Source of the DNA: a virus
Lineage: Duplodnaviria > Heunggongvirae > Uroviricota > Caudoviricetes
IMG/VR virus record: IMGVR_UViG_3300045988_145635
Length of the DNA: 64,000 nucleotides
Strand: one strand, 5' to 3'
Under the pieces are notes generated by a model, which saw only the letters and a list, made by a program, of their open reading frames with translations, ran no database searches and was not told the origin of the DNA. Of this stretch, positions 4,118-61,270 are shown in pieces. The position numbers and the translations under genes are program-made. The stretch's first letter is position 1. Each line of letters starts with the position of its first letter.

Positions 4118-4190
4118 TTTCATTGATAGGTAAGTGCTTATCTATTAACATGGGCCACTATATTTAGTGGCCCTCTTTATTTGGTGATAC

Positions 4191-6506
4191 ATGATAAGCA
4201 TCGTAAAACGTAACGGCCAAACAGAGCCGTTATCCGAAGAAAAATACAACCGCGTCGTAATGTATGGCGTAGAAGGCATTCGTGGTGTAAGCGCATCCGC
4301 TGTAGCAATGGGAGCTGCGGCCAGCATTTTTGATGGGATGACCACCAGCCAGTTGCATGAGGCTTTGGTTAAATCTGCCGCTGATTTGATCTCACCAGAA
4401 GCACCAAATTACTCACAGGTGGCTGCCCGCCTGAACATTTTTAAAATCCGCAAAGATGCCTTCGGTCGTTACGACTATCCGAACTTCTACCAACACATTG
4501 TCAAGAACGTTAACAAGGGCGTTTATGACAAGGATTTGCTGACACATTATTCGTTTGAAGAGATCGAAGAACTCGGCAATTACATTAAGCCGAAACGTGA
4601 CGATCTTTTTGGCTATGCAGCTACGGTGCAGTTGCAAAGCAAATACCTCGTTCAAAACCGTGTTACTGGTGAGATTCATGAGGGACCGCAACATATCTAT
4701 ATGCTGGTAGGCATGTGTCTGTTCCAGAATTGGGAAGACGACTGCGCTGGCAAAACACGTATGGAGATGGTCAAAGGTTTCTATGACGTTACAAGTACGT
4801 TCAAACTGTCTCTGCCCACACCAATCATGGCCGGCGTCCGTACTCCAACCCGTCAGTTCTCCAGTTGTGTGCTGATTGAGTCTGGCGATAGTCTGAAAGG
4901 GATTAGTGCAGCTTCAGCCGCAATTATCGACTACGTTTCACGTCGTGCTGGAATTGGTATTGGTTTTGGCCGTATCCGTGCGCTGGGCAGCGAGATCCGC
5001 AATGGTGAAGCCACCCATACTGGAGTTATTCCATTCCTGAAGCATTTCCAGACGGCTGTTAAATCTTGTTCGCAAGGTGGTGTTCGTGGTGGCGCAGCAA
5101 CAGCGTTTTACCCGATCTGGCATCTTGAAGTTGAAAGTCTGCTGGTGGTGAAAAATAACCGTGGTATTGATGAAAACCGCGTTCGCCATCTTGATTACGG
5201 CGTCATGAGTAACCGTCTAATGTACCGTCGACTCGTCAGAAGCGAGAACATCACTCTGTTCAGCCCGCATGATGTGCCTGATATGTACGAAGCCTTCTTC
5301 ACAGACCAGGAGCTGTTTGAAAAGCTGTACCATAAATACGAAGCCGATGATTCAATTCGCAAGAAGTCAGTACCTGCCATTGAGCTGTTCTCATCTCTGA
5401 TGCAGGAACGAGCGTCCACGGGCCGAATTTATATTGCGAACGTCGATCATATTAATGAGCATGGCGCTTTCATTCCTGCTCTTGCACCTGTTCGCCAGTC
5501 AAACCTGTGTATGGAGATCACCCTACCCACCCGTCCACTGGCATTTACCGACGACCCGAACGGTGAGATCGCGCTATGCACTTTATCCGCTTTTAACCTC
5601 GGAGCCATCCGTTCACTGGAGTCTCTTAAAGAGGTGGCGTTCTATGCCGTTGCTGCACTGGATTCGTTACTGGATTATCAAGACTATCCGATGGAGGCAG
5701 CCGAAGTGCCTGCCAAAGCTCGTCGTAGCTTGGGAATTGGTGTAACCAACTTTGCTTATTACCTGGCAAAGAATGGCGTTCGTTATTCTGATACCGCTGG
5801 CAATAAACTGGTGCATGAAACGTTCGAAGCTATCCAGTATTACCTTCTTGATGCCAGCTGCCGACTTGCTGAAGCAAAAGGTGAGTGTGACTGGTTTGAG
5901 CAGACCAAATACGCAATTGGTCAGTTGCCGATCGACCATTACCGTTCTTCATTAGACGAAAGTGGCGAAACCAACTTTGAGTTAAAGATGCCGTGGGAAG
6001 AACTGCGTGAACGTATTGCAAAATACGGCCTTCGCAACTCCACACTGACGGCACAAATGCCATGCGAGACTTCCAGCCAGATCACTAATTCCACCAACGG
6101 CATCGAACCGCCTCGTGGCCCGGTGTCAGTGAAATCTTCTAAGGACGGCATCGTCAAGATGGTCGTGCCTGAGTTTGAAAAACTGAAGGAACAGTATGAA
6201 TACCTGTGGGATATGCCGGACAACCGCGGCTATCTGACAAAGGTGGCGATCATCCAGAAGTTCTTTGACCAGGCTATTTCAGCCAATACCAACTATGACC
6301 CTTCTCGCTTTGAAGGCGATAAAGTCCCAATGATGACGCTACTGTCAGATTTGCTTCTCGCCTACAAGATGGGAGTTAAAACGCTTTACTACCACAACAC
6401 CAGAGATGGGGCAGGAAAGCGTGATGACGACGAACCGCAGAATCCACTGACGCAAGCTGTAGCCGTCGAGCCAGAAGATGAGTGCGACGGAGCCTGCAAA
6501 ATCTGA
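4191..6506 (+). CDS. nrdA: ribonucleoside-diphosphate reductase alpha subunit (class Ia)
   Basis: 771-aa protein collinear with recalled E. coli NrdA, including YLVQNRVTGEI, PTPIMAGVRTPTRQFSSCVLIE and VRQSNLCMEI blocks and the C-terminal CxxC tail. Confidence 0.95.
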   Translation: MISIVKRNGQTEPLSEEKYNRVVMYGVEGIRGVSASAVAMGAAASIFDGMTTSQLHEALVKSAADLISPEAPNYSQVAARLNIFKIRKDAFGRYDYPNFYQHIVKNVNKGVYDKDLLTHYSFEEIEELGNYIKPKRDDLFGYAATVQLQSKYLVQNRVTGEIHEGPQHIYMLVGMCLFQNWEDDCAGKTRMEMVKGFYDVTSTFKLSLPTPIMAGVRTPTRQFSSCVLIESGDSLKGISAASAAIIDYVSRRAGIGIGFGRIRALGSEIRNGEATHTGVIPFLKHFQTAVKSCSQGGVRGGAATAFYPIWHLEVESLLVVKNNRGIDENRVRHLDYGVMSNRLMYRRLVRSENITLFSPHDVPDMYEAFFTDQELFEKLYHKYEADDSIRKKSVPAIELFSSLMQERASTGRIYIANVDHINEHGAFIPALAPVRQSNLCMEITLPTRPLAFTDDPNGEIALCTLSAFNLGAIRSLESLKEVAFYAVAALDSLLDYQDYPMEAAEVPAKARRSLGIGVTNFAYYLAKNGVRYSDTAGNKLVHETFEAIQYYLLDASCRLAEAKGECDWFEQTKYAIGQLPIDHYRSSLDESGETNFELKMPWEELRERIAKYGLRNSTLTAQMPCETSSQITNSTNGIEPPRGPVSVKSSKDGIVKMVVPEFEKLKEQYEYLWDMPDNRGYLTKVAIIQKFFDQAISANTNYDPSRFEGDKVPMMTLLSDLLLAYKMGVKTLYYHNTRDGAGKRDDDEPQNPLTQAVAVEPEDECDGACKI

Positions 6507-6613
6507 CATATGGTGGGGGATATCCCCACCTTCTCTTTGATTTGTAAGCCTTGTTTAAACACATAAGATAACAACTTGTTTAAACGCACCAAAAAAAGAA
6601 AAAGGAAAAACAC

Positions 6614-7756
6614 ATGTCATATTCAACGTTCCGTTTGGGTGCTAATGATGCAACCAAAGAGCCTATGTTCCTCGGACAATCTGTCAACGTGGCACGTTAC
6701 GATCAGCAAAAATACCGTGATTTTGAAAAGTTGATTGAACGTCAATTGTCTTTCTTCTGGCGGCCGGAAGAAGTTGATATTTCGAGCGATCGTATCGACT
6801 TCAACACGAAGCTGCGGGACCACGAACGTCACATTTTTCTGAGCAATCTCCGTTATCAAACGTTACTCGATTCAGTTCAGGGACGTAGCCCAAATGCAAC
6901 GCTGCTGCCGCTTATCTCTATTCCTGAACTGGAAACGTGGGTTGAAACGTGGTCTTTCTCTGAGACTATCCATAGCCGTAGCTACACCCACATTATTCGT
7001 GGCATGGTGGACGATCCGAGTATTGTTTTTGACGGTATTGTTACGGATGAAGAAATCATCAACCGAGCGATCAGTATCTCTGCTGAATATGACAGGCTTT
7101 ATGGGATGACATGCGAGCGCCAGTCGTTAGGTGAGAAGGAGTTTGAACGTCTGTACGTAAATGAATATGGCTGGGAGCCATACCCTTTGCATCGTCAGCT
7201 TTTCCGCACGTTGGTGTCCATTAATGCGCTTGAGGCGATCCGTTTCTATGTAAGTTTTGCATGTACGTTTGCCTTTGGCGAACGGAAGTTGCTTGAGGGT
7301 AACACCAAAATTATGCGCTTTATTGCCCGTGATGAAGCTCTGCATTGCGAAGGAACTGAACGCATGATCCGCTTCATGCGTACCGGTCGCGAAGGTTTAT
7401 TGTGGAAAGAGATTGCTGCTGATGAAGAAAACGTCATTTACGACACCATGAAATCAGTCGCCGAACAAGAAATGAACTGGGCAGACTATCTCTTCAAAGA
7501 CGGTTCGATGATTGGTTTAAACGCGGATATTCTGAAGACCTATGTAAAATACCGCACCAATCTGGCTATGAATCGTCTTGGCCTGAAGGCTTTATTTCCA
7601 GAAGTTACCACAGATCCGCTGGTCTGGATGAACAAGTGGTTGTTAACCGACACACTGCAAATTGCACCACAAGAGGCAGAGCAAAGCACATATCTGGTAG
7701 GTCAGATCGATTCTACCGTGGATAAGGCTTCTCTAAGCCAGTTTGCAGACCTGTAA
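6614..7756 (+). CDS. nrdB: ribonucleoside-diphosphate reductase beta subunit
   Basis: 380-aa protein with long blocks matching recalled NrdB ([38 protein letters not shown]); class A motif immediately upstream. Confidence 0.92.
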
Positions 7757-7833
7757 ACCGATACAAAGCATTATGTGGCCTGGCAACGCTGGGCCACAAT
7801 GGATCACAAGAATTAAGAAGGAACAAAACTAGC

Positions 7834-8703
7834 ATGAACTTTACCAAACTGACTGACCACCTGAAACTTGCCACCGATCGTCTCATTGGATTTAAGCCAG
7901 AACCATATGAGTTGCATGAAGGTCATGGTGTAGCTACTGAAAGTATTTACAAGATGGTCGATCAGTTTCATGAACTCTTCCAGCATCCGAGACGCGTTAT
8001 GCCGACACCAGAGCTGCTTCGTCTCCGTGCAAGCCTGATTCATGAAGAAGCTGTAGTGGAAGGTATTCCAGCCGCAATGAATGGGGATATTGAGCAACTG
8101 CTGGATGCAATGGCCGACTTTTTATACGTTGGTGTTGGTACGATGGTCGCCATCAAAGGTGGTATTTCTACCGGCATGACCTATTACACGCAGGAACAGA
8201 GCATTGATCGCTTTATGCAGACAATTTTTGTGCCCGGTAACACTGTTTTCGATGATATGGCAATGCCATTTCAGGAAGCTCGTGAGGCGTCATATATGCT
8301 CGAAGAGCTGGCAGATAAACTTGAGAACAAGACTGTTAAGGATTCTGAGCTGATTCAGGAACTGCGCCGTGTCATGAACAAAATCTATGTGGCGTGCATG
8401 ATGACCTATCGACTGGCTGATTTCCTCGGTATCAATGTAGTCGAGCTGGTTGGCGAAATTCATCGGTCTAACATGACAAAATTATGGCCTGCTGATGTCG
8501 AGGAACGTCGCCAGGCTGTGGCCAACTGCAAATACGACTCTTCAGACCTGGGATTTCGCCATGCTGATGGTACCGATAAGATGATCGGTTTTCGAATTTC
8601 CGATGGAAAGATTCTGAAGTCTCCAACCTATAGTGATGTCGATTTATCCTCCTTTGTTGAGCAAGCTAAAGCCTCAGCAATGTACGGAATGATCAAAAAA
8701 TAA
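7834..8703 (+). CDS. hypothetical protein, possibly MazG-like NTP pyrophosphohydrolase
   Basis: 289-aa ORF with two E/D-rich helical segments (LIHEEAVVEGIPAAMNGDIEQLLDAMADF; LIQELRRVMNKIYVA) resembling all-alpha NTP-PPases; assignment tentative. Confidence 0.4.
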   Translation: MNFTKLTDHLKLATDRLIGFKPEPYELHEGHGVATESIYKMVDQFHELFQHPRRVMPTPELLRLRASLIHEEAVVEGIPAAMNGDIEQLLDAMADFLYVGVGTMVAIKGGISTGMTYYTQEQSIDRFMQTIFVPGNTVFDDMAMPFQEAREASYMLEELADKLENKTVKDSELIQELRRVMNKIYVACMMTYRLADFLGINVVELVGEIHRSNMTKLWPADVEERRQAVANCKYDSSDLGFRHADGTDKMIGFRISDGKILKSPTYSDVDLSSFVEQAKASAMYGMIKK

Positions 8704-8846
8704 TTGTAGGTAGTTATCTATCTATGTATATTGTGTTAGCGCGTTAAATTCCTGAAACAACTATTCATTTTGGTGGCCTATGGCCACCATTTTTTTATCT
8801 ATCTGGCCTTGTTCCCTCAATAAATGTAAACTCACGTAATGAATAA

Positions 8847-9977
8847 GTGATTACTTATCTTTGTGAGGTTTTTGTGTCACTCCTTTTGAATCGTGAGCAT
8901 ACGAACGGTCAGGTAACAAACGCATCGTATGCAAAAGTTATTGAGACGGTGCTTAAAAGCGGCGTGCAGGCTGATGATCGCACAGGCACTGGTACTTTAA
9001 GCACCTGCTACGTTCCCTCTTACTACATGCTTACTGGTGGGACTGTGCCGCTTATTTCTGGAAAGGCGGTAAATCTTAAGCCACTGCTTGTCGAACTTGA
9101 GTGGTATCTGAAAGGCACGGGCAACATCCAATTTCTCAAGGATAACGGCGTTAAGATTTGGGATGCATGGGCCGATGAGAATGGCGATTTGGGGCCAGTT
9201 TACGGTAAGCAGTGGCGTCGATGGGAAGATACCCGCATCGTGAGCCATAGTGAATATCTGAGCAAGATCGCTACTTTCCGTGAACGCGGGTACAAAGTCG
9301 AGGGATACCTAGGTATCAGTGAAGATCGCGTAGTGCTGTCCCGTGAAATCGATCAGCTACAGCGTATTGTCGATACACTGCGCACGAACCCTACCGATCG
9401 TCGCATCATGCTTAACGCATGGAACGTAGGCGAGCTTGAGGATATGAAACTGCCACCTTGCCACTTTGTCTTCTCTTTGTGGAGTCGTGAGCTTGATTTT
9501 GAAACCCGTTTAACGATGGCAACTGACATTGGTCTTCAACACAGTCGCCTCGGTTACGAGTCTATCTACACCAAGATGCTATACGATCTGGAGATGGACG
9601 GCAGTGTTACTGAAGCTGAACTGGATGAACTTGGAATCCCCAAACGCATCCTCAACTCCTGCCTCGTACAGCGTAGCGTAGACACTTTTGTTGGTATGCC
9701 ATTCAATATTGCTGGCTATGGCATTCTCACTCATTTTCTCGCGAAGATTACGGGTCACATGGCCGGTGCATTTGTGCATTTTGGCTTTGACGTGCATTTG
9801 TACAACAACCACATGGAAGGTGTGTGTGAGCTAATGAAACGACAGGCTCCAGAGCATTCAGATCCGGTCGTTATTTTCCCTCATGAATGGTCAGAGTTGG
9901 ATGATTTCAAATGGGACGAGGTTTTAATTCTTGGCTATGACCCTCTATCGTGGATCAAGGTTCCAGTGGCGGTGTGA
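8847..9977 (+). CDS. thyA: thymidylate synthase homologue with internal insertion
   Basis: DRTGTGT, IWDAWADENGDLGPVYGKQWRRW, active-site LPPCH and DTFVGMPFNIAGY blocks; about 45 extra residues between the PCH and PFNIA blocks; start codon uncertain (ATG 8847 or GTG 8874). Confidence 0.85.
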   Translation: MITYLCEVFVSLLLNREHTNGQVTNASYAKVIETVLKSGVQADDRTGTGTLSTCYVPSYYMLTGGTVPLISGKAVNLKPLLVELEWYLKGTGNIQFLKDNGVKIWDAWADENGDLGPVYGKQWRRWEDTRIVSHSEYLSKIATFRERGYKVEGYLGISEDRVVLSREIDQLQRIVDTLRTNPTDRRIMLNAWNVGELEDMKLPPCHFVFSLWSRELDFETRLTMATDIGLQHSRLGYESIYTKMLYDLEMDGSVTEAELDELGIPKRILNSCLVQRSVDTFVGMPFNIAGYGILTHFLAKITGHMAGAFVHFGFDVHLYNNHMEGVCELMKRQAPEHSDPVVIFPHEWSELDDFKWDEVLILGYDPLSWIKVPVAV

Positions 9978-9978
9978 T

Positions 9979-10392
9979 ATGGCAAGAGGTATGTATGTCT
10001 TATGCGAAATTGAAGGTGTGCTGGCAAATGCCAGCCATCGTAAATCAGTATCTGACGCGGATGCAGGCCAGCTCATTGCCGGTGATGAACTCATTTTCCC
10101 CACCAGCCGTATGTTGCGTGGTTTTGCTCGCTCAGGGGCTGAAGTGGTGCTTATCAGTAGCCGCTCTGAAACTCTTGAAGCGCCAACTAAACGATGGCTG
10201 AAAGATTTTGGCGTTGATTATGACTGGCTTCATCTCGTACCGAATGGCACCAGTTATGAGAAGCATATTAAGCGCACATTAGCGGAGCATAAAGGCGATC
10301 TGCTTATCGCTGCGCTGGTGCACGATCCTCGACTCCGTGCCGCTTTAGCCGACTCTCACCATCGACCGGTCATCTATGAGGTGAGCAAATGA
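9979..10392 (+). CDS. hypothetical protein
   Basis: ATG overlaps the thyA stop (TGATATG); 137 aa; no confident motif. Confidence 0.45.
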   Translation: MARGMYVLCEIEGVLANASHRKSVSDADAGQLIAGDELIFPTSRMLRGFARSGAEVVLISSRSETLEAPTKRWLKDFGVDYDWLHLVPNGTSYEKHIKRTLAEHKGDLLIAALVHDPRLRAALADSHHRPVIYEVSK

Positions 10393-10865
10393 AGATGATC
10401 GCTGCTGTTGGCCGTAACTATGAGATCGGCATAGCGAATGAACTCCCCTGGCGTTGTTCTACCGATCTGAAGCTATTTAAGAGACTCACCAAAAACGCCA
10501 CTGTCGTTATGGGGCGTAAAACGATGGAAAGTCTCAAACGCCCTCTTCCAGAGCGTCATAACCTCGTTTTGACGCGCTCTCATGGCTTTGTACCAAATGG
10601 ATTCTACCCTGCTGGTGTGGATGATGTGTTGCGATTACCAGAGCCTGTGTGGGTGATTGGCGGGGAACAAATTTACTCGCTATTCATGCCGCATGTTGAA
10701 GAGATTTGGCTCTCCCACATCGGCGTTGATGTGCCAAACGCCGATGCATTCTTCCCGGCAAGCATGATGCGTAATTTAGGCTTTGTGCCTGTTGAAACAG
10801 CTTATACCCAACGAGCCAGCGAGGAAGAGCCTGGCTTTTCGCAGATCGTATACAGAAGGTCGTAA
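10389..10865 (+). CDS. dihydrofolate reductase
   Basis: 158 aa; IAAVGRN, LPWRC, VVMGRKT and VIGGEQIY blocks typical of DHFR; translationally coupled to flanking genes. Confidence 0.85.
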   Translation: MKMIAAVGRNYEIGIANELPWRCSTDLKLFKRLTKNATVVMGRKTMESLKRPLPERHNLVLTRSHGFVPNGFYPAGVDDVLRLPEPVWVIGGEQIYSLFMPHVEEIWLSHIGVDVPNADAFFPASMMRNLGFVPVETAYTQRASEEEPGFSQIVYRRS

Positions 10866-11509: not shown

Positions 11510-11570
11510 AAATTGTTCGCCTCTTCGACATTGCGACAATAAAACTCTCAAAATGGGTTAAGGATAAAAA

Positions 11571-11990: not shown

Positions 11991-11999
11991 GGAGTTCTG

Positions 12000-12557: not shown

Positions 12558-12715
12558 AACAAAAGCCTACTTTAAAAAGTTTAAAGTAGGCTTTCTTTTA
12601 AAGAACAGTCGCCTTTCAATCATTTCCTGCCTGTATTTAATACTTTTCCGCCTGATAGGTTTAGTCAAAATGTAGCCATCGAAACGCAAATGTAACCAAA
12701 CAGAAGGAGACTTAC

Positions 12716-13525: not shown

Positions 13526-13708
13526 CGTTCCCCTACTGAAAATAAAGCCCATAGAGAGCTTTATAGTGCTGGGTAAGCCAATCACATACCCAGCACCACA
13601 AAAACGCGCCAGAGAGCTTCTCGTTTGCATTTCTGGCGCGTTTTATTTGATTGCCAGACATAAAATCAAATGCAAAAATAGGTATTTACTTACCTATCGA
13701 GAAAGAAG

Positions 13709-14302: not shown

Positions 14303-14324
14303 TTTGTTCTGGCGTCTGTAATTA

Positions 14325-15303: not shown

Positions 15304-15897
15304 ATGACGACGAAGACACCAGCCCGATCGCAAGAAAAAACTCGCAAAAAAGCCAAAAACAAAAATTCTCCCCGCACCAATTCCACAACGCCTGTCGTAG
15401 AGTTCAATCCCCAGCTTAAAACCGTGAAAATCTTCAGTGATGGCTCTTGCCTTAAAAATCCGGGTGGCCCGGGCGGTTACGGTATAGTTCTCCAGTATCG
15501 TGGTGAGGAACGCGAGTTCTCAGATGGTTTTCATAGCACCACCAATAACCGCATGGAGATGATGGGGGCACTTATCGGGCTGGAGCGTTTGAAATATCCA
15601 TGCAACGTTATTTTGCACTCTGATAGCCAGTATCTGAAAAACGGCATGACACAGTGGATGAAATGGTGGAAACGCAATGGATGGATGACTTCTGACAAAA
15701 AACCGGTAAAGAATGTTGATCTGTGGAAGCGTCTGGATGAGGCCGCAAGTCGACATAATGTTCGCTGGAAGTGGGTTAAAGGTCACGCCGGGCATCGTGA
15801 AAATGAAATATGTGATCGACTCGCGAAGATCGCAGCTTTTTCCGCAGCAGATATGCCTCACAAGAAAGATATTGGTTTTGTTTACAACAAGCAGTAA
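15304..15897 (+). CDS. rnhA: ribonuclease HI
   Basis: Strong collinear match to recalled E. coli RnhA ([62 protein letters not shown]); start placed at ATG 15304 after an AGGAG site. Confidence 0.9.
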
Positions 15898-16042
15898 GTA
15901 AGTGTTTACCTATCATTTTAAATCATGTATCTTATCGGCGTCAGGATGACAATGTGTCGGTAAGACACAGTTCCAGGATGGAACGAGAAAGGCGGCTGGC
16001 AATCGCCAGCCGCAACTCTTTCTGACACTGGATGGAGTCCAC

Positions 16043-16744: not shown

Positions 16745-16798
16745 CGGTTGTTAGTGCATATGCATTGACCGTCTTTTCGTAAGCAATTCATGTAACTA

Positions 16799-26343: not shown

Positions 26344-26363
26344 TACTGTATGTGTATACAGTA
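26344..26363. promoter_or_regulatory. LexA (SOS) box
   Basis: TACTGTATGTGTATACAGTA fits CTGT-N8-ACAG with AT-rich centre; 16 nt upstream of the umuD'-like start, overlapping its promoter region. Confidence 0.75.
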
Positions 26364-26806: not shown

Positions 26807-27907
26807 TCACACTGCGCGGAATGCGATTTCGCCAGGTATTACTTCACCTTGCCAATACATTTGGGCAGCAACGCGATCTGCGAGGTCACGATAAATAGCC
26901 GTAAATTCGCTATCTGGACGACTAATAACGGTTGGTGTTCCGTTATCCAGATCTTCACGAAGAGAGATATGAAGTGGCATTTGGCCTAACAACTGCGTGT
27001 TGTATTTCTCGGCCAGTTTCTGTGCGCCACCGGTGCCAAAAATTGGCTCGTGATGACCGCAGTTACTGCAAATATGCACACTCATGTTTTCGACGATACC
27101 CAGTACCGGCACTTCGACTTTTTCGAACATCACAATGCCTTTCTTCGCATCGATCAGCGCGATGTCTTGCGGCGTAGTTACCACAACCGCACCAGTTACA
27201 GGAATGTTCTGCGCCAGCGTCAACTGAATATCACCAGTGCCCGGCGGCATATCGAGAACGAGATAGTCCAGATCAGGCCATAGAGTTTCCTGCAACATCT
27301 GCATCAGCGCCTTGCTGGCCATCGGTCCACGCCACACCATTGCATTGTCGTCGGTGACCAGATAACCAATAGAGTTGGTTGCCAGGCCATGAGACATGAT
27401 AGGTGCCATGTGAGTACCGTCCGGTGAGGTTGGACGTTGGTTTTCCGCGCCCAGCATGGTTGGAATTGATGGACCATAGATATCGGCATCCAAAATACCA
27501 ACTTTCGCACCTTCAGCAGCCAACGCCAGTGCCAGATTTACCGCCGTGGAGGATTTACCTACGCCGCCCTTGCCTGAGCTGACGGCGATAATGTTCTTAA
27601 CGCCATTAATGCCTGGTTGGTTTTTGACGCGCTTAAGCGTGGCAATGTTGTACGACAGCTTCCAGTCAATAGCCTTTGCGCCAGTGATACGGAGCAGATC
27701 ACCACTACATTGCTCTTTCAGGTCTTCAAAAGGCTTATTCCACACGAAAGGCATGATTAGTTCGACATGCAGTGTGTCATCCATCAACGCAACATGGTGT
27801 AACGCTTTAAGCGTAGTCAGGTTGTGTTTCAGGGTTGGGTGCTGAAAATTAGCCAGCGTACCGGCTACCATTGCTCTCAGGGCATCCGGCGATTTGGACT
27901 CGCTCAT
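26807..27907 (-). CDS. apbC: Fe-S cluster carrier ATPase Mrp/ApbC (host-type)
   Basis: 366-aa protein that matches recalled enterobacterial Mrp almost throughout (SGKGGVGKSSTAVNLALAL, CSNCGHHEPIFG); divergent from metG as in enterobacterial chromosomes. Confidence 0.95.
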   Translation of the reverse strand: MSESKSPDALRAMVAGTLANFQHPTLKHNLTTLKALHHVALMDDTLHVELIMPFVWNKPFEDLKEQCSGDLLRITGAKAIDWKLSYNIATLKRVKNQPGINGVKNIIAVSSGKGGVGKSSTAVNLALALAAEGAKVGILDADIYGPSIPTMLGAENQRPTSPDGTHMAPIMSHGLATNSIGYLVTDDNAMVWRGPMASKALMQMLQETLWPDLDYLVLDMPPGTGDIQLTLAQNIPVTGAVVVTTPQDIALIDAKKGIVMFEKVEVPVLGIVENMSVHICSNCGHHEPIFGTGGAQKLAEKYNTQLLGQMPLHISLREDLDNGTPTVISRPDSEFTAIYRDLADRVAAQMYWQGEVIPGEIAFRAV

Positions 27908-28064
27908 CCCGTCTCCTTTATTTTAATTTGCGCAATTGTCGCCTTGTAGTGTACTCCAGCTACGACATTTAATCATTTATGAGAAATGCTGTTATCACAT
28001 GGCAGACATAAGGCCATTTTGTTACTATCAAGCCCCTTTTCACTACAAAGAAGTAATGCCTACT

Positions 28065-30098
28065 ATGACCCAAGTCGCGAAGAAAATTCTGGTGACGTGC
28101 GCGCTGCCGTACGCTAACGGCTCAATCCACCTCGGCCATATGCTGGAGCACATCCAGGCTGATGTCTGGGTTCGTTACCAGCGAATGCGCGGCCACGAGG
28201 TTAATTTCATCTGTGCCGACGATGCCCACGGTACGCCGATCATGCTGAAAGCGCAGCAGCTTGGTATCACACCGGAGCAGATGATTGGCGAAATGAGTCA
28301 GGAACACCAGACTGATTTCGCAGGCTTTAACATCAGCTATGACAACTATCACTCGACGCACAGCGAAGAGAACCGTCAGTTGTCTGAGCTTATCTATACT
28401 CGCCTGAAAGAGAACGGTTTTATTAAAAACCGCACTATCTCTCAGTTGTACGACCCGGAAAAAGGCATGTTCCTGCCGGATCGTTTTGTAAAAGGCACCT
28501 GCCCGAAATGTAAAGCGCCAGATCAATACGGCGATAACTGTGAAGTCTGCGGCGCAACATATAGCCCGACTGAATTGATCGAGCCGAAATCGGTGGTTTC
28601 TGGCGCTACCCCGGTAATGCGTGATTCCGAACACTTCTTCTTTGATCTGCCTTCTTTCAGCGAAATGTTGCAGGCATGGACCCGCAGCGGCGCGTTGCAG
28701 GAGCAGGTGGCGAACAAAATGCAGGAATGGTTTGAATCCGGCCTGCAACAGTGGGATATCTCCCGCGATGCGCCTTACTTCGGTTTTGAAATTCCGGACG
28801 CGCCGGGCAAATATTTCTACGTCTGGCTGGACGCGCCGATTGGCTACATGGGTTCCTTCAAGAATCTGTGCGACAAGCGCGGCGATACCACCAGCTTCGA
28901 TGAATACTGGAAGAAAGACTCCACCGCCGAGCTGTACCACTTCATCGGTAAAGATATTGTTTACTTCCACAGCCTGTTCTGGCCTGCCATGCTGGAAGGC
29001 AGCAACTTCCGCAAGCCGACCAACCTGTTTGTTCACGGCTATGTGACAGTGAACGGCGCGAAGATGTCCAAGTCTCGCGGTACCTTTATTAAAGCCAGCA
29101 CCTGGCTGAATCATTTTGACGCCGACAGCCTGCGTTACTACTACACTGCGAAACTCTCTTCGCGCATTGATGATATCGATCTCAACCTGGAGGATTTCGT
29201 TCAGCGCGTGAATGCCGATATCGTGAACAAAGTGGTTAACCTGGCCTCCCGTAATGCAGGCTTTATCAACAAGCGTTTTGACGGCGTGCTGGCAAGCGAA
29301 CTGGCTGACCCGCAACTGTACAAAACCTTTACTGATGCCGCTGAAGTGATTGGCGAAGCATGGGAAAGCCGCGAATTTGGTAAAGCTATCCGTGAAATCA
29401 TGGCATTGGCTGACCTGGCTAACCGCTATGTCGATGAACAGGCTCCGTGGGTGGTGGCGAAGCAGGAAGGGCGCGATGCCGATCTGCAGGCGATTTGCTC
29501 TATGGGCATTAACCTGTTCCGCGTGCTGATGACGTACCTGAAACCGGTACTGCCGAAACTGACTGAACGTGCAGAAGCATTCCTGAATACAGAACTGACC
29601 TGGGATGGTATCCAGCAACCGCTGCTGGGCCATAAAGTGAATCCGTTCAAGGCACTGTATAACCGTATCGATATGAAACAGGTGGAAGCACTGGTGGAAG
29701 CATCCAAAGAAGAAGTGAAAGCCACAGCCGCACCGGTAACTGGCCCACTGGCTGACGACCCGATTCAGGAAACCATCACCTTTGACGACTTCGCCAAAGT
29801 TGACCTGCGTGTGGCGCTGATTGAAAACGCGGAGTTTGTTGAAGGCTCTGACAAACTGCTGCGTCTGACACTGGATCTCGGTGGGGAAAAGCGTAATGTC
29901 TTCTCAGGCATCCGTTCTGCTTATCCCGACCCACAGGCATTGATTGGTCGTCACACCATTATGGTGGCTAACCTGGCTCCGCGTAAAATGCGCTTCGGTA
30001 TCTCCGAAGGCATGGTGATGGCTGCTGGCCCCGGCGGGAAAGATATCTTCCTGTTAAGCCCGGATGCTGGTGCTAAACCTGGCCACCAGGTTAAGTAA
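28065..30098 (+). CDS. metG: methionine--tRNA ligase (host-type)
   Basis: 677-aa protein from [25 protein letters not shown] to the C-terminal tRNA-binding domain; essentially identical to recalled E. coli MetG with a handful of substitutions; HIGH and KMSKS motifs present. Confidence 0.97.
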
Positions 30099-33753: not shown

Positions 33754-33816
33754 TATTGTAAGTACATACTTACGATCATAGAATATAAAAATAACCAAAA
33801 CACTACGGAGAGTGAA

Positions 33817-38262: not shown

Positions 38263-38826
38263 TCAAAAAGGTAAAATTCGTTCAACCCAATCGAAGAAAA
38301 CAAGAATTTTTCTGCCGTCTTTCAACTTAAGTGTGACTAGGCAGGCATCAACGCCATCTGACGTTCCCTCAATTTCGCGGCCGTCTGCCATGTAGACCCT
38401 TATAGATTGGCCGTTTTGATAAGCCTTGCGACATATCTTAAAAAAATCACGACGTGATGGCTGGTTGTCTACATAGTCAGGGTGTATTGTTAGTCTCCCT
38501 TTGAAATCGTAATCAATGCCATCAATTACGCCTGATTCAATTGTGCTAATGCGCTCAAGTGGGAGCCTTATACGATTTTCTTTGTCAAATGGAGTTGGAC
38601 AAAGGTCAACTTTGTTACGAGATGACATGAGACCATAAACGTACATGCAAAACACTTGGCCGTCTTCGAGAGTGACTCTTACAGGAAATTTAGCCCTCCG
38701 CCAGAAGAGCAAGGTGCGTTCAGCATGTTCGTAGTCTCGCGGCCATACTTCAGCCGGTATGCCGTAGGTGATATCTTTCGTCGTCATATCATTATAAAGT
38801 GGTTGGCAATATGTCCATTGTACCAT
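38263..38826 (-). CDS. hypothetical protein
   Basis: 187-aa ORF; alternative start at ATG 38787 would avoid overlap with the lipoprotein gene; its last 19 codons lie in the 52-bp repeat. Confidence 0.45.
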   Translation of the reverse strand: MVQWTYCQPLYNDMTTKDITYGIPAEVWPRDYEHAERTLLFWRRAKFPVRVTLEDGQVFCMYVYGLMSSRNKVDLCPTPFDKENRIRLPLERISTIESGVIDGIDYDFKGRLTIHPDYVDNQPSRRDFFKICRKAYQNGQSIRVYMADGREIEGTSDGVDACLVTLKLKDGRKILVFFDWVERILPF

Positions 38827-42445: not shown

Positions 42446-42466
42446 ATAAGTAAGTGATTACTTAGT
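42446..42466. promoter_or_regulatory. class B palindrome (AATAAGTAAGTGATTACTTAG) in a divergent promoter region
   Basis: Sits in the 65-bp gap between the divergently transcribed helicase and ParB-like genes. Confidence 0.45.
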
Positions 42467-42482: not shown

Positions 42483-43163
42483 ATGGATGTAAAAATCACG
42501 ATTTTGCAGGTTGATGTTGCCAACCTTCGCCCGAATACCTGGAACACCAATTCGGTTGGTGCGCAGAATTTTGAAAAACTGAAAGGTTCTATCGAAAAAT
42601 TGGGCTTTTTTAAGCCAATTTTGGCTCGTGAACTTGAAGATGGATTTTTTGAAATCCTCGGCGGCGAACATCGCTGGCGTGCCGCTATTGAGCAAGGAAT
42701 TTCAACGGTTCCAGTGCTTTCTGTGGGCAAAATTAGCGATGTCGTAGCTAAACAGATGTCACTGGTGGACAACGAGCGATACGGTGAAGACGACCAAATC
42801 GCATTGCAACGCTTCATTGAAGAAATTCAGTCAGAACTTGACTATCAACTGTCTGAAATCGCCCCGTATGACGACGAAATCTCGATGGTTTTAGCAAAAG
42901 AGGCGGCAATCGACCTTGAAGCACTGGAGGCGTTGTCTCGTGGTAGTGATGGGCCTGTCGATACCGACAAACGAGAGAAAACCGAACGTGTGGGGGCGGA
43001 ACATCAGACCATGCGCTTCAAAGTAACTTTCGATGCGTCAGATCGTGTTGCAGAAACCATAAAAAACATCATCAAAGAGCAGGCTATTAACACCGGTAAT
43101 GAAATGGAGAACGCTGGTGAGGCTCTGGTGTGGCTGGTCGACTACTACAAGGAGCGTATGTAA
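42483..43163 (+). CDS. ParB-like nuclease domain protein
   Basis: ILGGEHRWRAA motif of the ParB/sulfiredoxin fold; ORF-track start 42465 is GTG, ATG 42483 preferred. Confidence 0.65.
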   Translation: MDVKITILQVDVANLRPNTWNTNSVGAQNFEKLKGSIEKLGFFKPILARELEDGFFEILGGEHRWRAAIEQGISTVPVLSVGKISDVVAKQMSLVDNERYGEDDQIALQRFIEEIQSELDYQLSEIAPYDDEISMVLAKEAAIDLEALEALSRGSDGPVDTDKREKTERVGAEHQTMRFKVTFDASDRVAETIKNIIKEQAINTGNEMENAGEALVWLVDYYKERM

Positions 43164-43831
43164 TGACCAAAAAGTTTGAAATCGTATATCGCGACCCGGC
43201 AGATCTTATTCCCTATGAGATGAATGCCAAAAAGCATGATGAACAGCAGATCCGAGATCTGGCCGCAGCCATTAAAAAGCGCGGATTTGACCAGCCAATT
43301 ACGGTCGATAAGAACGACGTAATTATTACTGGCCACGGCCGCCGTGAGGCTGCAATTTTTGCTGGACTTGAGCGCGTGCCGGTTATTGTTCGCGATGATC
43401 TGAGTGATGACGAGGTACGTGCAAAGCGCCTTGAAGATAACCGACTTGCCAGCATTGATTACGATGCAATTAAGCTACAGAAAGAGCTTGAGTCGCTTGT
43501 TCTGGACGATATCGAGGTTTTCGGCTTCGAAGAGCGTGAGTTGAATGTTCTCGTTGGCAGTATGACAGAAGAAATGGACACCGACTCGCTAGTTATCGAT
43601 CTTGGCGAAGAAACTAAACGACAGAAGGATGAACACACCGAGATCAGTCGTGAAGTTGCAGCGGAAGAAGTACGTGTTGTCGACGTATTGGGCTTTAAAA
43701 CGCTCCCTGCTGGCTCTGCCATTGTTGTTGGTGATTTGCTTGCCCATATGGAAGAAATGACGGGAGAAAGCGGGGTAGACGCATTTGTGGCATATGCGGA
43801 GAAGATCTCTTCCGGGGAGATGGCTGCATGA
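43163..43831 (+). CDS. ParB-like nuclease domain protein (second copy)
   Basis: ITGHGRREAA motif; start set to the ATG overlapping the upstream stop (TAATG). Confidence 0.65.
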   Translation: MTKKFEIVYRDPADLIPYEMNAKKHDEQQIRDLAAAIKKRGFDQPITVDKNDVIITGHGRREAAIFAGLERVPVIVRDDLSDDEVRAKRLEDNRLASIDYDAIKLQKELESLVLDDIEVFGFEERELNVLVGSMTEEMDTDSLVIDLGEETKRQKDEHTEISREVAAEEVRVVDVLGFKTLPAGSAIVVGDLLAHMEEMTGESGVDAFVAYAEKISSGEMAA

Positions 43832-44493
43832 GCAAATACATCATCAACGTATCGTTTCAGACACGCGTAAATAAAACCACGCGCACGTTGGAAATCGCTG
43901 AGTCGTTCGGGCTTGGCCTGGACGAAAAAGAGTGGACGCTTTACGACAATCTGGAGCTGGAAGTGAAGCAGGGCGATGTGGTGTACATCACCGGCCAATC
44001 CGGTTCCGGCAAATCCGTTGTGCTGCGCGAGTTGCAACGACAGATGAAGGATGAAGGGCTGTCTGTAGCCTCCATCGATGATTTTACCTTCGATAATGAG
44101 GTTAACGTCATCGATCAGTTGGGCAAAACGACCAGCGATGCGCTTGGGTTGTTATCTATGGCTGGTCTGAACGATGCATATCTGTTTGTTCGCAAGCCTT
44201 CTGAAATGTCAGACGGCCAGAAATATCGTCTCAAGATTGCCAAACTGATTGAGTCAGGCGCTAAAGTGTGGGCTGCTGACGAGTTCGGCGCTGTTCTCGA
44301 CCGTGTAACCGCTCAGGTTGTGGCGTCTAACCTCCAGCGTGCCGCTCGAAAGGTTGGTGCGACGGTAATGGTGGCGACGACTCACGAAGACCTGAAGAAC
44401 GCGCTGCGCCCGGATATGCAGATCACCAAGCACTACAAAGAACGCGTGAAGGTGGAATATCACAATGGTAGTCATGATGAGGTTCATTTATGA
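43828..44493 (+). CDS. ABC-type ATPase-like protein (nucleotide-binding domain only)
   Basis: Walker A GQSGSGKS, signature-like SDGQKYRL, Walker B VWAADEFG, H-loop ATTHE; no transmembrane domain. Confidence 0.6.
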   Translation: MSKYIINVSFQTRVNKTTRTLEIAESFGLGLDEKEWTLYDNLELEVKQGDVVYITGQSGSGKSVVLRELQRQMKDEGLSVASIDDFTFDNEVNVIDQLGKTTSDALGLLSMAGLNDAYLFVRKPSEMSDGQKYRLKIAKLIESGAKVWAADEFGAVLDRVTAQVVASNLQRAARKVGATVMVATTHEDLKNALRPDMQITKHYKERVKVEYHNGSHDEVHL

Positions 44494-45380
44494 CGGACAT
44501 CATCATTAAACGCTACCGCCCTGAAGAGTTTCCGCGTCATCTGGATTTTCTGGAGCGAATGACTGTCACAAAGGGAACTGTAGAGGACTGGCACGCTCTT
44601 AAGTCGCTTCACTACAAAACAGACGGCAAACCTTTCGCGCCAACTTACTATCGCTGCGAACTTGATGACCGTCTGGTGGGCGTCGTGGTTATGGCTTACC
44701 CGAAACTACTGTTGGCACCTCGCCACCGCATGTTTCCTAAGTTGAAACCAACCACTAATACCACCGTGGCTAACCAGTACTGGGGTCGGTACGTGAATAA
44801 CAACTTTGCGGTGATCAGTCGCTCAGTTGTGGATACTCAGTATCGTGGCGTAGGCGTCTCTTATCGAATGATTAACCTGGTTAGCAGGATGCATGACCGG
44901 CCAATCATTGAGATCCAGTCCTCGATGAGCAAATACAATCCCTTCGCCATGAAAGCAGGGTTTAAGTTCATCCGCCCTGAGCGACCGAAGAGCTATGAAA
45001 GTGCACTGCGTGTATTCCAGCGCCATTTCCGTTCCGACCCGGGTGATAACGAGGCGATCGTCAAAGAGTTGTTCGCAATGAGCGAGTCTCGTCGTCGCCG
45101 TGCACTGCGTGATCTGGTGGCGGACTACCACAAGAACAGTTCCCTGGCAAAAGCTGGGCGGAATCGTGGCACGACGATTCAGGACATTGCCGACAGTCTG
45201 GTGGACGAGGCCAGCATTGTGAAGCTGCTCAAGGACATTCACAACCTGAGCTTTACGTCTCCGTTGTATGGTGTGTACCGAAACCCTGACTTTGGTCGTC
45301 GACTGCCTGACACGCTGCCACTGCTGGCATTCGACAAACAACCTTTGGATAAACCGTTAGAAATTGCTTTACCGGCATAA
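44490..45380 (+). CDS. hypothetical protein (possible GNAT-like fold)
   Basis: 296-aa ORF; QYRGVGVSYRMI segment resembles GNAT motif A; tentative. Confidence 0.4.
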   Translation: MTDIIIKRYRPEEFPRHLDFLERMTVTKGTVEDWHALKSLHYKTDGKPFAPTYYRCELDDRLVGVVVMAYPKLLLAPRHRMFPKLKPTTNTTVANQYWGRYVNNNFAVISRSVVDTQYRGVGVSYRMINLVSRMHDRPIIEIQSSMSKYNPFAMKAGFKFIRPERPKSYESALRVFQRHFRSDPGDNEAIVKELFAMSESRRRRALRDLVADYHKNSSLAKAGRNRGTTIQDIADSLVDEASIVKLLKDIHNLSFTSPLYGVYRNPDFGRRLPDTLPLLAFDKQPLDKPLEIALPA

Positions 45381-45389: not shown

Positions 45390-45656
45390 ATGACGTTAAC
45401 CGATAAACAAAAGGACATCATCAAAACGCTCAATCTCGGTTATGAGCGAGGTCATTTACTTGATCTGGACGAATTGCTTGAAGTTTTGCCGTACAAGACA
45501 ACCAAGCAAAGTATCCAGTTCTCAATTCGCGCTCTGATAAAAAAGGGGCTGGTGGAGAAAGGGCATACGCGCCAACGCAGTGACAATCGCTATCACCGCC
45601 GGACTCTTGGGTTAACCACTTTAGGTCGAGCCAAAGCGAAGTTACTGGTGATGTAA
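45390..45656 (+). CDS. small putative DNA-binding protein
   Basis: 88-aa basic protein with helix-turn-helix-like segment. Confidence 0.4.
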   Translation: MTLTDKQKDIIKTLNLGYERGHLLDLDELLEVLPYKTTKQSIQFSIRALIKKGLVEKGHTRQRSDNRYHRRTLGLTTLGRAKAKLLVM

Positions 45657-47767: not shown

Positions 47768-49342
47768 ATGGAATTGAACGACAAACAAATTAAGGATCTG
47801 GTGGTGCGACGCCACCCGGAATACGAAAAGAAAAAAGAACATTGGGACTTCCTCGCCAGCACTTACGCTGGCGGGCGTGGTTGGTTTACAGACAATATCT
47901 TTCGTTACTTTAAAGAGGGAGATCAGGAGTTTAAGGAGCGAGTTGAGCGTGCTTATCGCTTCAACCACACTCGTGAGGTGGTAAACCTCATCAACAAATA
48001 TCTCTTTAAAGAAGACATTCATAGAAATATCGAAGAGGCACCAGAGCAGATCCGCAATTTCTGGAAACGTGCGACTCGCCAGAATGCCTCTATTGACTCA
48101 TTTATGGCCGCTATTGATTTGCAGTCGTCTATTTACGGTCGCATATGGGTTGTTGTCGATAGCACGATGAGTGGTGATGTTGAGTCAGTAGCTGACGAGA
48201 AAAAGAAAGATGCTCGCGCCTACGCCTACTGGATTTCACCTCAGCAAATGCTGGATGTGGCATGGGACGACGACGGGAATATGTTATGGGCGTTAATTGT
48301 GGAAGTCGCTCGCGATGACGCAGATCCTTTTACTTCTACAGGTCAGGAATACCAACGTTATCGTCTGTGGACACAAAACGAGTGGTATCTGTTCCGTGAG
48401 GAAGTGAAGAAGGGGGCTGGTGGAGCAGGTCGTCGTCAGGCAAAAGTTATTTTAGAGGACAGCGGCGCGCATAATCTCGGCGTAGTTCCTGTGTTTCCTG
48501 TTGATTGTATTGGAGAAAGTGAATCACCGTATTTCAGCCCATCGTTGATCGATGATATCGCTTATCTTGATCGTGCGGTTGCAAACTATCTGTCAAACCT
48601 TGATGCCATTATTCAGGATCAGACATTTAGCCAGTTGGCTATACCGGTACAGTCGCTTTTACCTGGTGATGAAAACCACACTAAAGTGCTTGAAATGGGC
48701 ACAAAGCGAGTCTTCACCTACGATTCTGAAGGTGGAAACCAGCCGTTTTATCTGTCACCAGACCCGAAACAAGCTCAGATGATCATCACTACGATTAAGA
48801 CGGTGATTAACGAAATCTACCATTCAGTTGGTGTAGCTGGTGAGCGAACGAAGCAGGACAACGCACAGGGAATCGATAATTCATCTGGTGCCGCAAAAAT
48901 GTATGACTTCCAGCGTGTAAATAGCTTGCTTGTCACAAAAGCAGAGCGTCTGGAAAGGGCTGAACGCCAAATCATGCTACTGGTTGCGAAATGGATGGGG
49001 GTAGATCTGGACGAAGACCACTCTTTAATTGCGTATCCAGAAAGTTTCGATATTCGTGGCCTTACTGATGAATTTTCTGTTGCCGAGAAACTGTCATTAC
49101 TTCAGGCACCGGACTCTGTACGTCGTCACCAGATGGAAATGCTTATTGAGAAGATTTTCCCGAACATTACTGAGGCGATGAAAAAGGAATTTGATAAAGA
49201 TCTCTTGAATTTTCCTCCAAAAAATGATCTAAATACCCTTGAAAATAAGTCAGTACTTACTTATGATCGTGGTGCAGCCCAAGAAAGCGGGCAAGATCAA
49301 CCCCGAGGGAATGGGGACTCATCTACTCAAGAGAACGAGTGA
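47768..49342 (+). CDS. portal protein
   Basis: 524-aa protein immediately after the large terminase; acidic C-terminus; position and size typical of portal proteins. Confidence 0.75.
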   Translation: MELNDKQIKDLVVRRHPEYEKKKEHWDFLASTYAGGRGWFTDNIFRYFKEGDQEFKERVERAYRFNHTREVVNLINKYLFKEDIHRNIEEAPEQIRNFWKRATRQNASIDSFMAAIDLQSSIYGRIWVVVDSTMSGDVESVADEKKKDARAYAYWISPQQMLDVAWDDDGNMLWALIVEVARDDADPFTSTGQEYQRYRLWTQNEWYLFREEVKKGAGGAGRRQAKVILEDSGAHNLGVVPVFPVDCIGESESPYFSPSLIDDIAYLDRAVANYLSNLDAIIQDQTFSQLAIPVQSLLPGDENHTKVLEMGTKRVFTYDSEGGNQPFYLSPDPKQAQMIITTIKTVINEIYHSVGVAGERTKQDNAQGIDNSSGAAKMYDFQRVNSLLVTKAERLERAERQIMLLVAKWMGVDLDEDHSLIAYPESFDIRGLTDEFSVAEKLSLLQAPDSVRRHQMEMLIEKIFPNITEAMKKEFDKDLLNFPPKNDLNTLENKSVLTYDRGAAQESGQDQPRGNGDSSTQENE

Positions 49343-51152: not shown

Positions 51153-51186
51153 TCAGTGTGGTAGATAAGCAATTATCTATGTTTAA

Positions 51187-51215
51187 GGGTGGGCTATACG
51201 CCCACCCTTTTTGTA
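51187..51215 (+). terminator. rho-independent terminator
   Basis: AGGGTGGGC-TATAC-GCCCACCC followed by TTTTTG, directly after the capsid gene. Confidence 0.75.
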
Positions 51216-54734: not shown

Positions 54735-54759
54735 AATCGGTAAGTATATACTTACTATT
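54735..54759. promoter_or_regulatory. class B palindrome with perfect GTAAGTATATACTTAC core
   Basis: Located upstream of the major tail protein gene. Confidence 0.45.
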
Positions 54760-60860: not shown

Positions 60861-60902
60861 CTATCGACTGCCCCCGACGGGGCAGTCTTACAAGGATGTG
60901 AG

Positions 60903-61238
60903 ATGGAAAGACAGACGTTTAATTGGTATCCAGATTACGAATCTGAGAAAAGCGTAAAACCGAATGTAACGGTACTTAATTTTGGTGATGACTACGAGCA
61001 ACGACAGGCTCAAGGTCTTAATCGTATTAAAGAAGAATGGTCGCTAACCTTTACCAGACCATACAACGAAATTAATGCAATCGATGACTTCCTGACTGAG
61101 CGAGCAGGCGTTGAGTCGTTCTATTGGGTTAATCCAAGAGGAAAACGGATTGTAGTTGTATGTGACAGTCATACGGTCAAGCGATATCAGGGGTACTGTG
61201 TCTTAACTGCTACATTCAGACAAGTATTTGAGGCTTAA
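60903..61238 (+). CDS. minor tail protein (lambda M-like)
   Basis: 111-aa ORF immediately after the tape measure gene. Confidence 0.55.
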   Translation: MERQTFNWYPDYESEKSVKPNVTVLNFGDDYEQRQAQGLNRIKEEWSLTFTRPYNEINAIDDFLTERAGVESFYWVNPRGKRIVVVCDSHTVKRYQGYCVLTATFRQVFEA

Positions 61239-61244
61239 GTATCT

Positions 61245-61270
61245 GGATAAGTAAGTACTAATTTACTATC
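61245..61270. promoter_or_regulatory. class B palindrome-like motif
   Basis: GGATAAGTAAGTACTAATTTACTATC followed by a GGCGCT/AGCGCC hairpin. Confidence 0.35.

Follow-up and report, generated by a model that had tools for sequence, protein, structure and literature searches.

Dispersed 20-bp palindromes in an SSU5-type phage-plasmid are conserved, predicted protein-binding sites and probable operators of a lysogeny repressor

The question raised by this stretch of DNA is what reads the palindromes of the form GTAAGT...ACTTAC that recur along it. The stretch, referred to here as the window, comprises 64,000 nucleotides of the IMG/VR virus record IMGVR_UViG_3300045988_145635. Ten such palindromes had been listed in the initial annotation, all of them said to be intergenic and to precede genes, and they were suggested to mark either a temporal class of promoters or an operator. 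The described sequences are present at all ten positions. On the basis of the comparisons presented here, the palindromes are real, conserved and predicted protein-binding sites, and they are probably the dispersed operators of a dimeric, element-encoded helix-turn-helix (HTH) lysogeny repressor of the CYRAN_45 family.

By its sequence, the window is derived from a phage-plasmid of the SSU5 type. A 10-kb piece of it displays 99.1% identity to Escherichia phage Cyrano (the pLF82 phage-plasmid of E. coli LF82), ~81% identity to Salmonella phage SSU5, and ~78% identity to Klebsiella phage-plasmids. The window, ~98-99% identical to Cyrano overall, aligns with positions 63773-108379 plus 1-18281 of that phage in blocks, most of them at 97-99% identity, together with short 85-96% stretches and a few indels. 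Nearly all of its genes lie on the + strand. Three regions make up the window: one devoted to DNA metabolism and recombination, an accessory one, and one with the genes for packaging, heads and tails.

The repeated unit, denoted class B, is a 20-bp dyad with the consensus halves ATAGGTAAGT and ACTTACCTAT and a weak symmetric extension of ~3 bp on either side. Enrichment over composition-matched shuffles, on which the earlier proposal depended, is apparent in each of the three counts that were made. Matches to TAAGT-N(0-12)-ACTTA number seven in the window versus 0.62 expected, and none of 100 dinucleotide shuffles reached seven. Sequences with three or fewer mismatches to TAGGTAANNNNTTACCTA number 12 versus 1.54 expected, the highest value in any shuffle being six. 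A 20-bp weight matrix, applied at a threshold of at least 17 bits, returned 12 non-overlapping sites versus 0.02 expected from 200 dinucleotide shuffles. The last of these enrichments is partly circular because the matrix was trained on close relatives of the window; the two consensus counts are free of this circularity.

Eleven of the 12 sites are intergenic. The remaining one, a strong site at 49245-49264 that had been missed previously, lies at the 3' end of the portal gene, and the description of the palindromes as always intergenic thus holds for every copy except this one. That they precede genes is likewise true only in part, in that class B sites are tied to the preceding stop codon as often as to the next start. 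The distance from site to next start ranges from 2 to ~130 nt, with some sites 11-13 nt ahead of the start codon, and the distance to the upstream stop is also widely variable. The sites at 15894, 20873 and 47738 overlap a stop codon, and the motif itself contains both TAG and TAA.

The complete genome of Cyrano contains ~20 sites scoring at least 17 bits, and 19 of the 20 are intergenic, the portal copy again being the exception. They are confined to the lytic modules, namely the virion, lysis, replication, recombination and nucleotide-metabolism genes, and at the same threshold no sites were found in the accessory and plasmid-maintenance regions. A high-information, over-represented site confined to lytic modules, as would be anticipated for dispersed immunity-repressor operators, is what was observed. 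The consensus in SSU5 and in the Klebsiella element pJN2-26 is the same as that in Cyrano and the window. Matching sites are present in SSU5 at 18 of the 20 Cyrano positions, in pJN2-26 at 16, and in both at 15, and single bases turn over around the consensus among the orthologous sites. Across the 15 orthologous triplets the identity is 0.87 within the 20 bp as compared to ~0.5 in the flanks, with a slight rise in the adjacent 3-6 bp. A mobile element or a chance repeat is ruled out by this positional orthology across genera.

The 54 distinct sites contain 392 Watson-Crick pairs between their arms, versus 398 ± 6 when the right halves are shuffled among the sites, and the arm mismatches (51 G-T versus 41 A-C) are without strand bias. 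The half-sites fit the consensus independently and without compensatory change, which argues for the binding site of a dimeric protein on DNA rather than for a hairpin in RNA or DNA. A structured RNA or an intrinsic terminator was rejected in view of the missing compensatory pairing, G-U bias and U-tract.

Relatives with 50-60% capsid identity have their own versions of the motif, in 28-33 copies each. The A. baumannii phage-plasmid p5734_2 (type 1) contains ~30 copies with the consensus ATTAGTAAGCGCTTACTAAT (halves ATTAGTAAGC and GCTTACTAAT), the A. baumannii element NZ_CP155459.1 (type 2) contains 28 copies with the consensus ATCAGTCAGTACTGACTGAT (halves ATCAGTCAGT and ACTGACTGAT), and the Rhizobium phage-plasmid RHph_N2_6 contains ~33 copies of the GTCAATCAATATTGATTGAC type (halves GTCAATCAAT and ATTGATTGAC). 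The changes that distinguish these variants are symmetric across both halves, and in every variant each half-site is still built of two 4-mers in tandem. Sites recur in the same gaps across the lineages, for example those between the TerL and portal genes, after the capsid gene, and between the UvsW and ParB genes. Neither a palindrome family nor a repressor of the CYRAN_45 type was found in nickie, a syntenic but virulent Pseudomonas phage.

CYRAN_45 of Cyrano is a protein of 128 amino acids with an XRE-type HTH, and its gene adjoins that of an integrase. It carries the annotation of a putative repressor, LF82 lysogens express it, and ciprofloxacin induces Cyrano (PMC9928086). When all Cyrano proteins were profiled for presence or absence, CYRAN_45 was the only regulator that is present in the motif-bearing lineages tested and missing from nickie; ParA and three tail proteins show the same pattern. 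HTH homologues of the family are encoded by both Acinetobacter types and by the Rhizobium phage, and in PLSDB the taxonomic spread of the gene mirrors that of the capsid gene. Searches of the PDB and NCBIfam with the repressor sequence yielded just weak, generic XRE-type matches. Four repressor lineages correspond to four motif variants, and both repressor and motif are missing from nickie, the one natural repressor-less lineage available.

The region upstream of the repressor gene was inspected in 19 distinct sequences, taken from 80 IMG/VR loci in which the repressors are 56-100% identical. All 19 contain TTTACA-16-TGTAATAT followed directly by C(G/A)GTAAG(C/T)ACTTACCA, which is the 14-bp core of the motif; in one of them the core carries a single substitution. 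Given its position directly after the -10 hexamer, the core presumably lies over the transcription start of the repressor gene. In Acinetobacter types 1 and 2 and in Rhizobium, the lineage's own variant is found upstream of the repressor gene, and in type 2 a full site is accompanied by additional full and half sites within the divergent immunity region. An operator-like copy at the repressor promoter or in the immunity region, the second feature anticipated for dispersed immunity-repressor operators, is hence also present.

The small integrase beside the repressor is 98% identical between Acinetobacter type 2 (25297-25884) and p5734_2 (2556-3140), and its neighbors are only 29-60% identical between the types. 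This pattern of sequence identity suggests a recent exchange at the Acinetobacter immunity locus. SSU5, which has been described as virulent (PMC5427195), is missing the integrase-repressor module (at ~42600). Natural Enterobacter plasmids share 98-99% identity with SSU5 as far as a breakpoint just past its tRNA-Asn gene, and beyond the breakpoint the remainder matches elsewhere in those plasmid records, which suggests a recent deletion. Loss of the repressor module probably explains the virulence of SSU5, and, were SSU5 a mutant that arose by recent deletion, it would be expected to retain the sites.

The sequences flanking the dyads prolong the symmetry (A-W-R ... Y-A-T) such that a TATYAT hexamer is formed at each end, and the best -10 scores are approximately equal in both directions. 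When -35 and -10 elements were scored jointly, four to seven sites per genome (about a quarter) proved to fall within the spacer of a forward sigma-70 promoter that scores well; the examples in the window are those at 49239-49267, 4123-4151 and 61244-61272. Reverse-orientation promoters almost never score well, the exception being the divergent UvsW/ParB gap with its leftward operon. A directional -10 signal was rejected, for the two sides are nearly equal and the forward bias is limited to the high-scoring -35/-10 combinations. Downstream of sites 4126 and 51161, at a distance of no more than 6-8 nt, lies a GC-rich terminator hairpin whose 5' arm contains the predicted start; transcription from upstream would thereby terminate and a new transcript begin. 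A temporal class of promoters, one of the two possibilities raised by the initial annotation, is not supported by these results, given that class B sites lie ahead of both DNA-metabolism (early/middle-type) and virion (late) genes and that overall no directional -10 signal distinguishes the sides of the palindrome. The other possibility, an operator, has gained comparative support, namely a dimer-type site, motif variants and an HTH repressor that occur together and are each specific to the lineage, a copy at the repressor's own promoter, and some copies in the spacers of good sigma-70 promoters. The sites and the elements adjoining them are listed in Table 1.

Table 1. Class B sites of the window and other features (window coordinates; pJN2-26, SSU5 and Cyrano positions refer to those genomes)
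Feature	Coordinates	Strand	Score	Context and conservation
Class B site, strong, ATAGGTAAGTGCTTATCTAT	4126..4145		27.8 bits	Between RuvC-like gene (stop 4117) and nrdA (start 4191); fills spacer of TTGATA-17-TAACAT (4123-4151); site and flanking promoter hexamers kept in SSU5 and pJN2-26
Terminator-like hairpin GGGCCACT..AGTGGCCC + T-run	4152..4173	+		Directly 3' of site 4126; kept in SSU5 and pJN2-26; its 5' arm would contain the predicted start of the 4123-4151 promoter
Class B site, weaker, marginal, GTAGGTAGTTATCTATCTAT	8706..8725		17.4 bits	Just past MazG-like stop (8703)
Class B site, weaker, variant or register-shifted	8839..8862			12 nt ahead of thyX; holds 16-bp perfect palindrome ATAAGTGATTACTTAT (8843-8858); orthologues are full-length sites (SSU5 72511, pJN2-26 9789)
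Class B site, strong, ATAGGTATTTACTTACCTAT	13678..13697		27.6 bits	12 nt ahead of Dam methylase start (13709); pJN2-26 orthologue (14621) is a perfect 20-bp palindrome
Class B match, marginal	14337
Class B site, strong, GTAAGTAAGTGTTTACCTAT	15894..15913		25.9 bits	Overlaps RNase H stop codon (15895-15897); orthologues found
Perfectly symmetric GC-rich hairpin GCGGCTGGC-AATC-GCCAGCCGC	15992..16013			Between RNase H gene and next gene; terminator score on both strands
Class B site, strong, ATAGGTAAATACTTACCTAA	20873..20892		27.0 bits	Abuts stop of DUF4942 gene, 43 nt to next gene; zero mismatches to TAGGTAANNNNTTACCTA
LexA box, canonical, CTGTATGTGTATACAG	26346..26361			Directly upstream of UmuD/HumD-like S24 peptidase gene (26380-26769)
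MinD-like ATPase gene	26807..27907	-
Methionyl-tRNA synthetase gene, complete	27936..30098	+
Class B match, marginal spacing variant, TATTGTAAGTACATACTTAC	33754..33773			Accessory region; Cyrano counterpart (96686) scores 11.2 bits
FljA homologue	38263..38826	-		Full length; Pfam PF03614, E = 4e-80
Class B site, strong, ATAAGTAAGTGATTACTTAG	42446..42465		20.6 bits	Divergent gap between UvsW-helicase operon (-) and ParB operon (+); leftward TATAAT abuts site; gap also has a site in both Acinetobacter lineages, in type 1 with a strong leftward TTGAAA-18-TATAAT promoter
Two ParB-family proteins	42483..43831
ABC-type ATPase and ATPase-acetyltransferase pair	43828..45380
Winged-helix protein, 88 aa (phrog_900)	45390..45656			Immediately upstream of terS
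Class B site, strong, ATAGGTAAGTAATTATCTAA	47738..47757		23.7 bits	Overlaps TerL stop codon, 11 nt ahead of portal start; gap also has a site in SSU5, pJN2-26, both Acinetobacter lineages and the Rhizobium phage
Near-consensus sigma-70 promoter TTGAAA-17-TATGAT	49239..49267	+	10/12 match	Spacer is site 49245; -10 is TATGAT in Cyrano and SSU5, TATCAT in pJN2-26
Class B site, strong, ATAAGTCAGTACTTACTTAT	49245..49264		28.7 bits	Inside portal ORF, 78 nt before stop; 20-bp site and TTGAAA hexamer identical in Cyrano, SSU5 and pJN2-26
Class B site, strong, GTAGATAAGCAATTATCTAT	51161..51180		20.3 bits	9 nt past stop of major capsid gene; pJN2-26 orthologue (44026) is a perfect palindrome; post-capsid site also in both Acinetobacter lineages
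Terminator hairpin GGGTGGGC-TATAC-GCCCACCC + TTTTT	51187..51207	+		3' of capsid-gene site
Class B site, strong, variant or register-shifted, ATCGGTAAGTATATACTTAC	54736..54755		20.4 bits	Ahead of major tail gene; contains perfect palindrome GTAAGTATATACTTAC; orthologues found in relatives
Class B site, strong, variant or register-shifted, half-degenerate, ATAAGTAAGTACTAATTTAC	61247..61266		23.5 bits	Between tail genes M and L; within TGGATA-17-TATCAT (61244-61272); pJN2-26 orthologue (53621) is a full site
Hairpin GGCGCTGAC..GTTAGCGCC, 10-bp stem	61276..61298			Encloses tail L start codon (61288); may serve translation control rather than termination
Class A 13-bp sites	6569, 16801, 17530, 22071, 30183, 30234, 31674, 32869, 33354, 34258, 35021, 45775, 45800

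In the mechanism envisaged, the repressor would occupy ~20-25 sites between the genes of the lytic modules while the element persists as a plasmid-prophage. Where a site lies in the spacer or the -10 region of a sigma-70 promoter, as in the three promoters of the window named above, initiation would be blocked, and at other sites the bound repressor may also act as a roadblock to read-through. The 14-bp core past the -10 element of the repressor's own promoter would provide negative autoregulation. Upon loss or inactivation of the repressor, all units would be freed at once; the lytic programme would otherwise remain silent. We infer both the identity of the binding protein and the sign of the regulation.

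Several observations weigh against this model. The gene for the CYRAN_45-family repressor lies outside the window, and the copy at the repressor promoter has only the inner 14 bp of the motif. Most sites are without a recognizable -35 element, and the -10-like TATYAT flanks occur on both sides of the palindrome, so that overlap with a promoter is apparent only at a minority of them. The joint absence of repressor and sites rests on one natural lineage, the genus Nickievirus. The enterobacterial repressors differ by up to 44% and yet the operator consensus is unchanged. Finally, the 88-residue winged-helix protein also diverges, with 36% identity between the Acinetobacter types as compared to 29% for the repressor, and therefore co-variation by itself does not single out the repressor.

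That winged-helix protein is the candidate binder in the main rival explanation, which holds that the palindrome is the site of a phage activator and replaces the -35 element of middle or late promoters, as does the -22 element of the Lpa system in P1. Such an activator is considered rather unlikely. The copy over the repressor start would, in that case, switch off repressor synthesis during lytic growth. The winged-helix gene is placed like lpa of P1, just before the terminase genes, its operon begins at class B site 42446, and the protein is present in all of the motif-bearing lineages and strongly divergent among them; most sites, moreover, have no -35 element and end in TATYAT. The P1 late promoters share AAGT/ACTT half-sites with the class B motif, and their 9-bp palindrome, AAGTGACTT, which lies 4 nt ahead of the -10 element, resembles the AAGTACTT center of the class B motif. 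It is found in ~11 copies in that phage-plasmid, just ahead of or overlapping a -10-like hexamer and without a -35 element. The class B palindrome, however, is 20 bp in length rather than 9 bp, its -10-like ends are symmetric and present on both sides, and it is not restricted to late genes, there being copies in the immunity region and ahead of nrdA, thyX, dam, and the replication and recombination genes. Several sites, in addition, occupy the spacers of near-consensus sigma-70 promoters, which would need repression rather than activation, and nickie encodes a winged-helix homologue and yet has no palindromes. No Lpa homologue was detected with tblastn (the best match, at E = 0.29, is to a non-conserved gene), nor did any of the candidates tested match PHROG family phrog_1704 or Pfam family PF25716. 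Thus, despite the similar -22 element, the P1 Lpa system was rejected on account of the missing homologue and the differences in gene set and geometry.

Three further explanations were weighed. RK2 (IncP) encodes KorB, a ParB-family protein that reads 12 OB palindromes, and the number and dispersal of the class B sites recall the KorB operators. Genes for two ParB_N proteins follow site 42446 directly, and one of the proteins could by analogy function as a global regulator or as a partition/condensation factor. This is very unlikely, for virulent nickie retains both ParB-like proteins without having such palindromes, the two Acinetobacter types share 56-65% identity in these proteins although their motif cores differ, and the plasmid-maintenance regions are avoided by the sites. 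A host transcription factor would account for a consensus that is identical in the E. coli, Salmonella and Klebsiella elements despite repressors of 56-100% identity. We know of no enterobacterial factor with a class B site, however, the motif is wired into the immunity region, and the two phage-plasmid types with different cores (GTAAG and GTCAG) occur within one host species, A. baumannii, which argues against a host factor; it is regarded as highly improbable. Least credible is that the palindromes function as hairpins in RNA or single-stranded DNA, whether for processing, stabilization, translational control or termination. The sites do lie in transcribed intercistronic gaps, some of them just ahead of start codons, and the element encodes a protein of the FljA family (PF03614), FljA being known to bind fliC mRNA. 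Against this stand the lack of covariation, of a G-U excess over A-C, and of a U-tract, the absence of the FljA-like gene from the motif-bearing Acinetobacter lineage, and the copy directly past the repressor -10 element, near the expected start, which suits a DNA operator.

Other proteins were set aside as binders by their distribution alone. The FljA-like protein, CYRAN_37 and a Cra-like protein are missing from the motif-bearing Acinetobacter lineage, and the ParB-like proteins and the ABC-ATPase pair are both present in nickie, which is without the motif. A sigma-70-family gene lies between cobS and dnaE in Acinetobacter p5734_2 (8092-8757) and in Rhizobium RHph_N2_6 (16494-17129), and no counterpart was found in Cyrano, SSU5, nickie or the window. 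A promoter recognized by that sigma factor was rejected as well, since the gene does not follow the motif distribution.

The system proposed here, dispersed operators under a CYRAN_45-family repressor, resembles the C1 operators of P1 or the stoperators of mycobacteriophage L5, yet belongs to neither family. P1 is likewise a phage-plasmid, and its many operators are dispersed over the genome among separate lytic transcription units; many overlap sigma-70 promoters, and according to the P1 annotation they are also present at the repressor's own gene. The P1 operator is an asymmetric site of 17 bp, in contrast to the 20-bp dyad found here, and C1 is unrelated to the small XRE-type candidate; a tblastn search with C1 found no homologue. 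The stoperators of L5 and other cluster A phages, which are read by the gp71 immunity repressor, are present in tens of copies in the short gaps between genes of both early and late lytic operons, frequently at stop codons, and are thought to silence the prophage genome-wide. They are, however, asymmetric sites of 13-14 bp oriented with transcription, whereas the class B site is a dyad with symmetric flanks, without orientation bias, and some copies clearly overlap promoters. The OB sites of KorB and the MrpR elements of SPbeta are further cases in which a single global regulator acts through multi-copy palindromic operators scattered along a large mobile element. SPbeta is an unrelated Gram-positive prophage, and the ParB homologues considered here, present in nickie, do not follow the motif distribution as a KorB-type system would require.

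A broader reading, which we hold only tentatively and judge to be less likely true than false, is that the SSU5/pMT1/pKpn/Acinetobacter-AB/Rhizobium assemblage shares one genome-wide silencing system in which a small XRE repressor reads 20-33 intergenic dyads that serve both as operators and as elongation roadblocks. As part of that same tentative reading, the [TNRR][TNRR]T|A[YYNA][YYNA] build of the sites would imply an unusual, possibly higher-order binding mode, and the core variants GTAAG, GTCAG and ATCAA would mark out separate heteroimmunity groups.

That repressor operators can be dispersed is already known from P1, the mycobacteriophages and SPbeta. Full-text literature searches, which did not extend to subscription papers, with the motif strings and with SSU5 combined with repressor, operator or inverted repeat returned no description, and the motif, the candidate repressor and the variants that distinguish the SSU5, AB and Rhizobium phage-plasmids seem not to have been described before. 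Phage-plasmids of the SSU5 type are very common in clinical Enterobacterales, in Yersinia pestis (pMT1) and in Acinetobacter, and ~950-1000 PLSDB records contain both the capsid and the repressor genes. With an operator, a candidate repressor and target promoters in hand, the lysis-lysogeny switch becomes directly testable. The model predicts immunity groups, for example GTAAG versus GTCAG in Acinetobacter, and the motif offers an easy sequence marker for annotating the lytic transcription units of the family.

A second palindrome, AAACAANTTGTTT, is presumably the class A motif of the initial annotation, from which the class B palindromes had been said to be distinct. The two are indeed different, class A lying ~25-45 nt ahead of start codons in a different gene set. 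It has 18 matches in the window versus 6.4 expected; across the examples read, it precedes the start codon by roughly 10-45 nt and lies downstream of or around sigma-70-like promoters, chiefly at small accessory-region genes and ahead of terS. There are 17-20 copies in Cyrano, SSU5 and pJN2-26, and the numbers are near chance in the Acinetobacter plasmid and nickie.

Other features of the window include a LexA box ahead of a UmuD/HumD-like gene, an arrangement also present in P1. The FljA homologue is related to the phase-1 flagellin repressor of Salmonella; it has counterparts in SSU5 and the Klebsiella element and none in the Acinetobacter relative, and it may target host flagellin expression. 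The position of the winged-helix gene is kept in all relatives, virulent nickie included, and its product could be a late or packaging regulator. The genes for the MinD-like ATPase and the methionyl-tRNA synthetase were found in neither SSU5 nor pJN2-26. No proteins of the element are better conserved than the ABC-type ATPase and ATPase-acetyltransferase pair, with 96-99% amino-acid identity among the E. coli, Salmonella and Klebsiella elements and 37-57% identity even with the Acinetobacter and Pseudomonas relatives.

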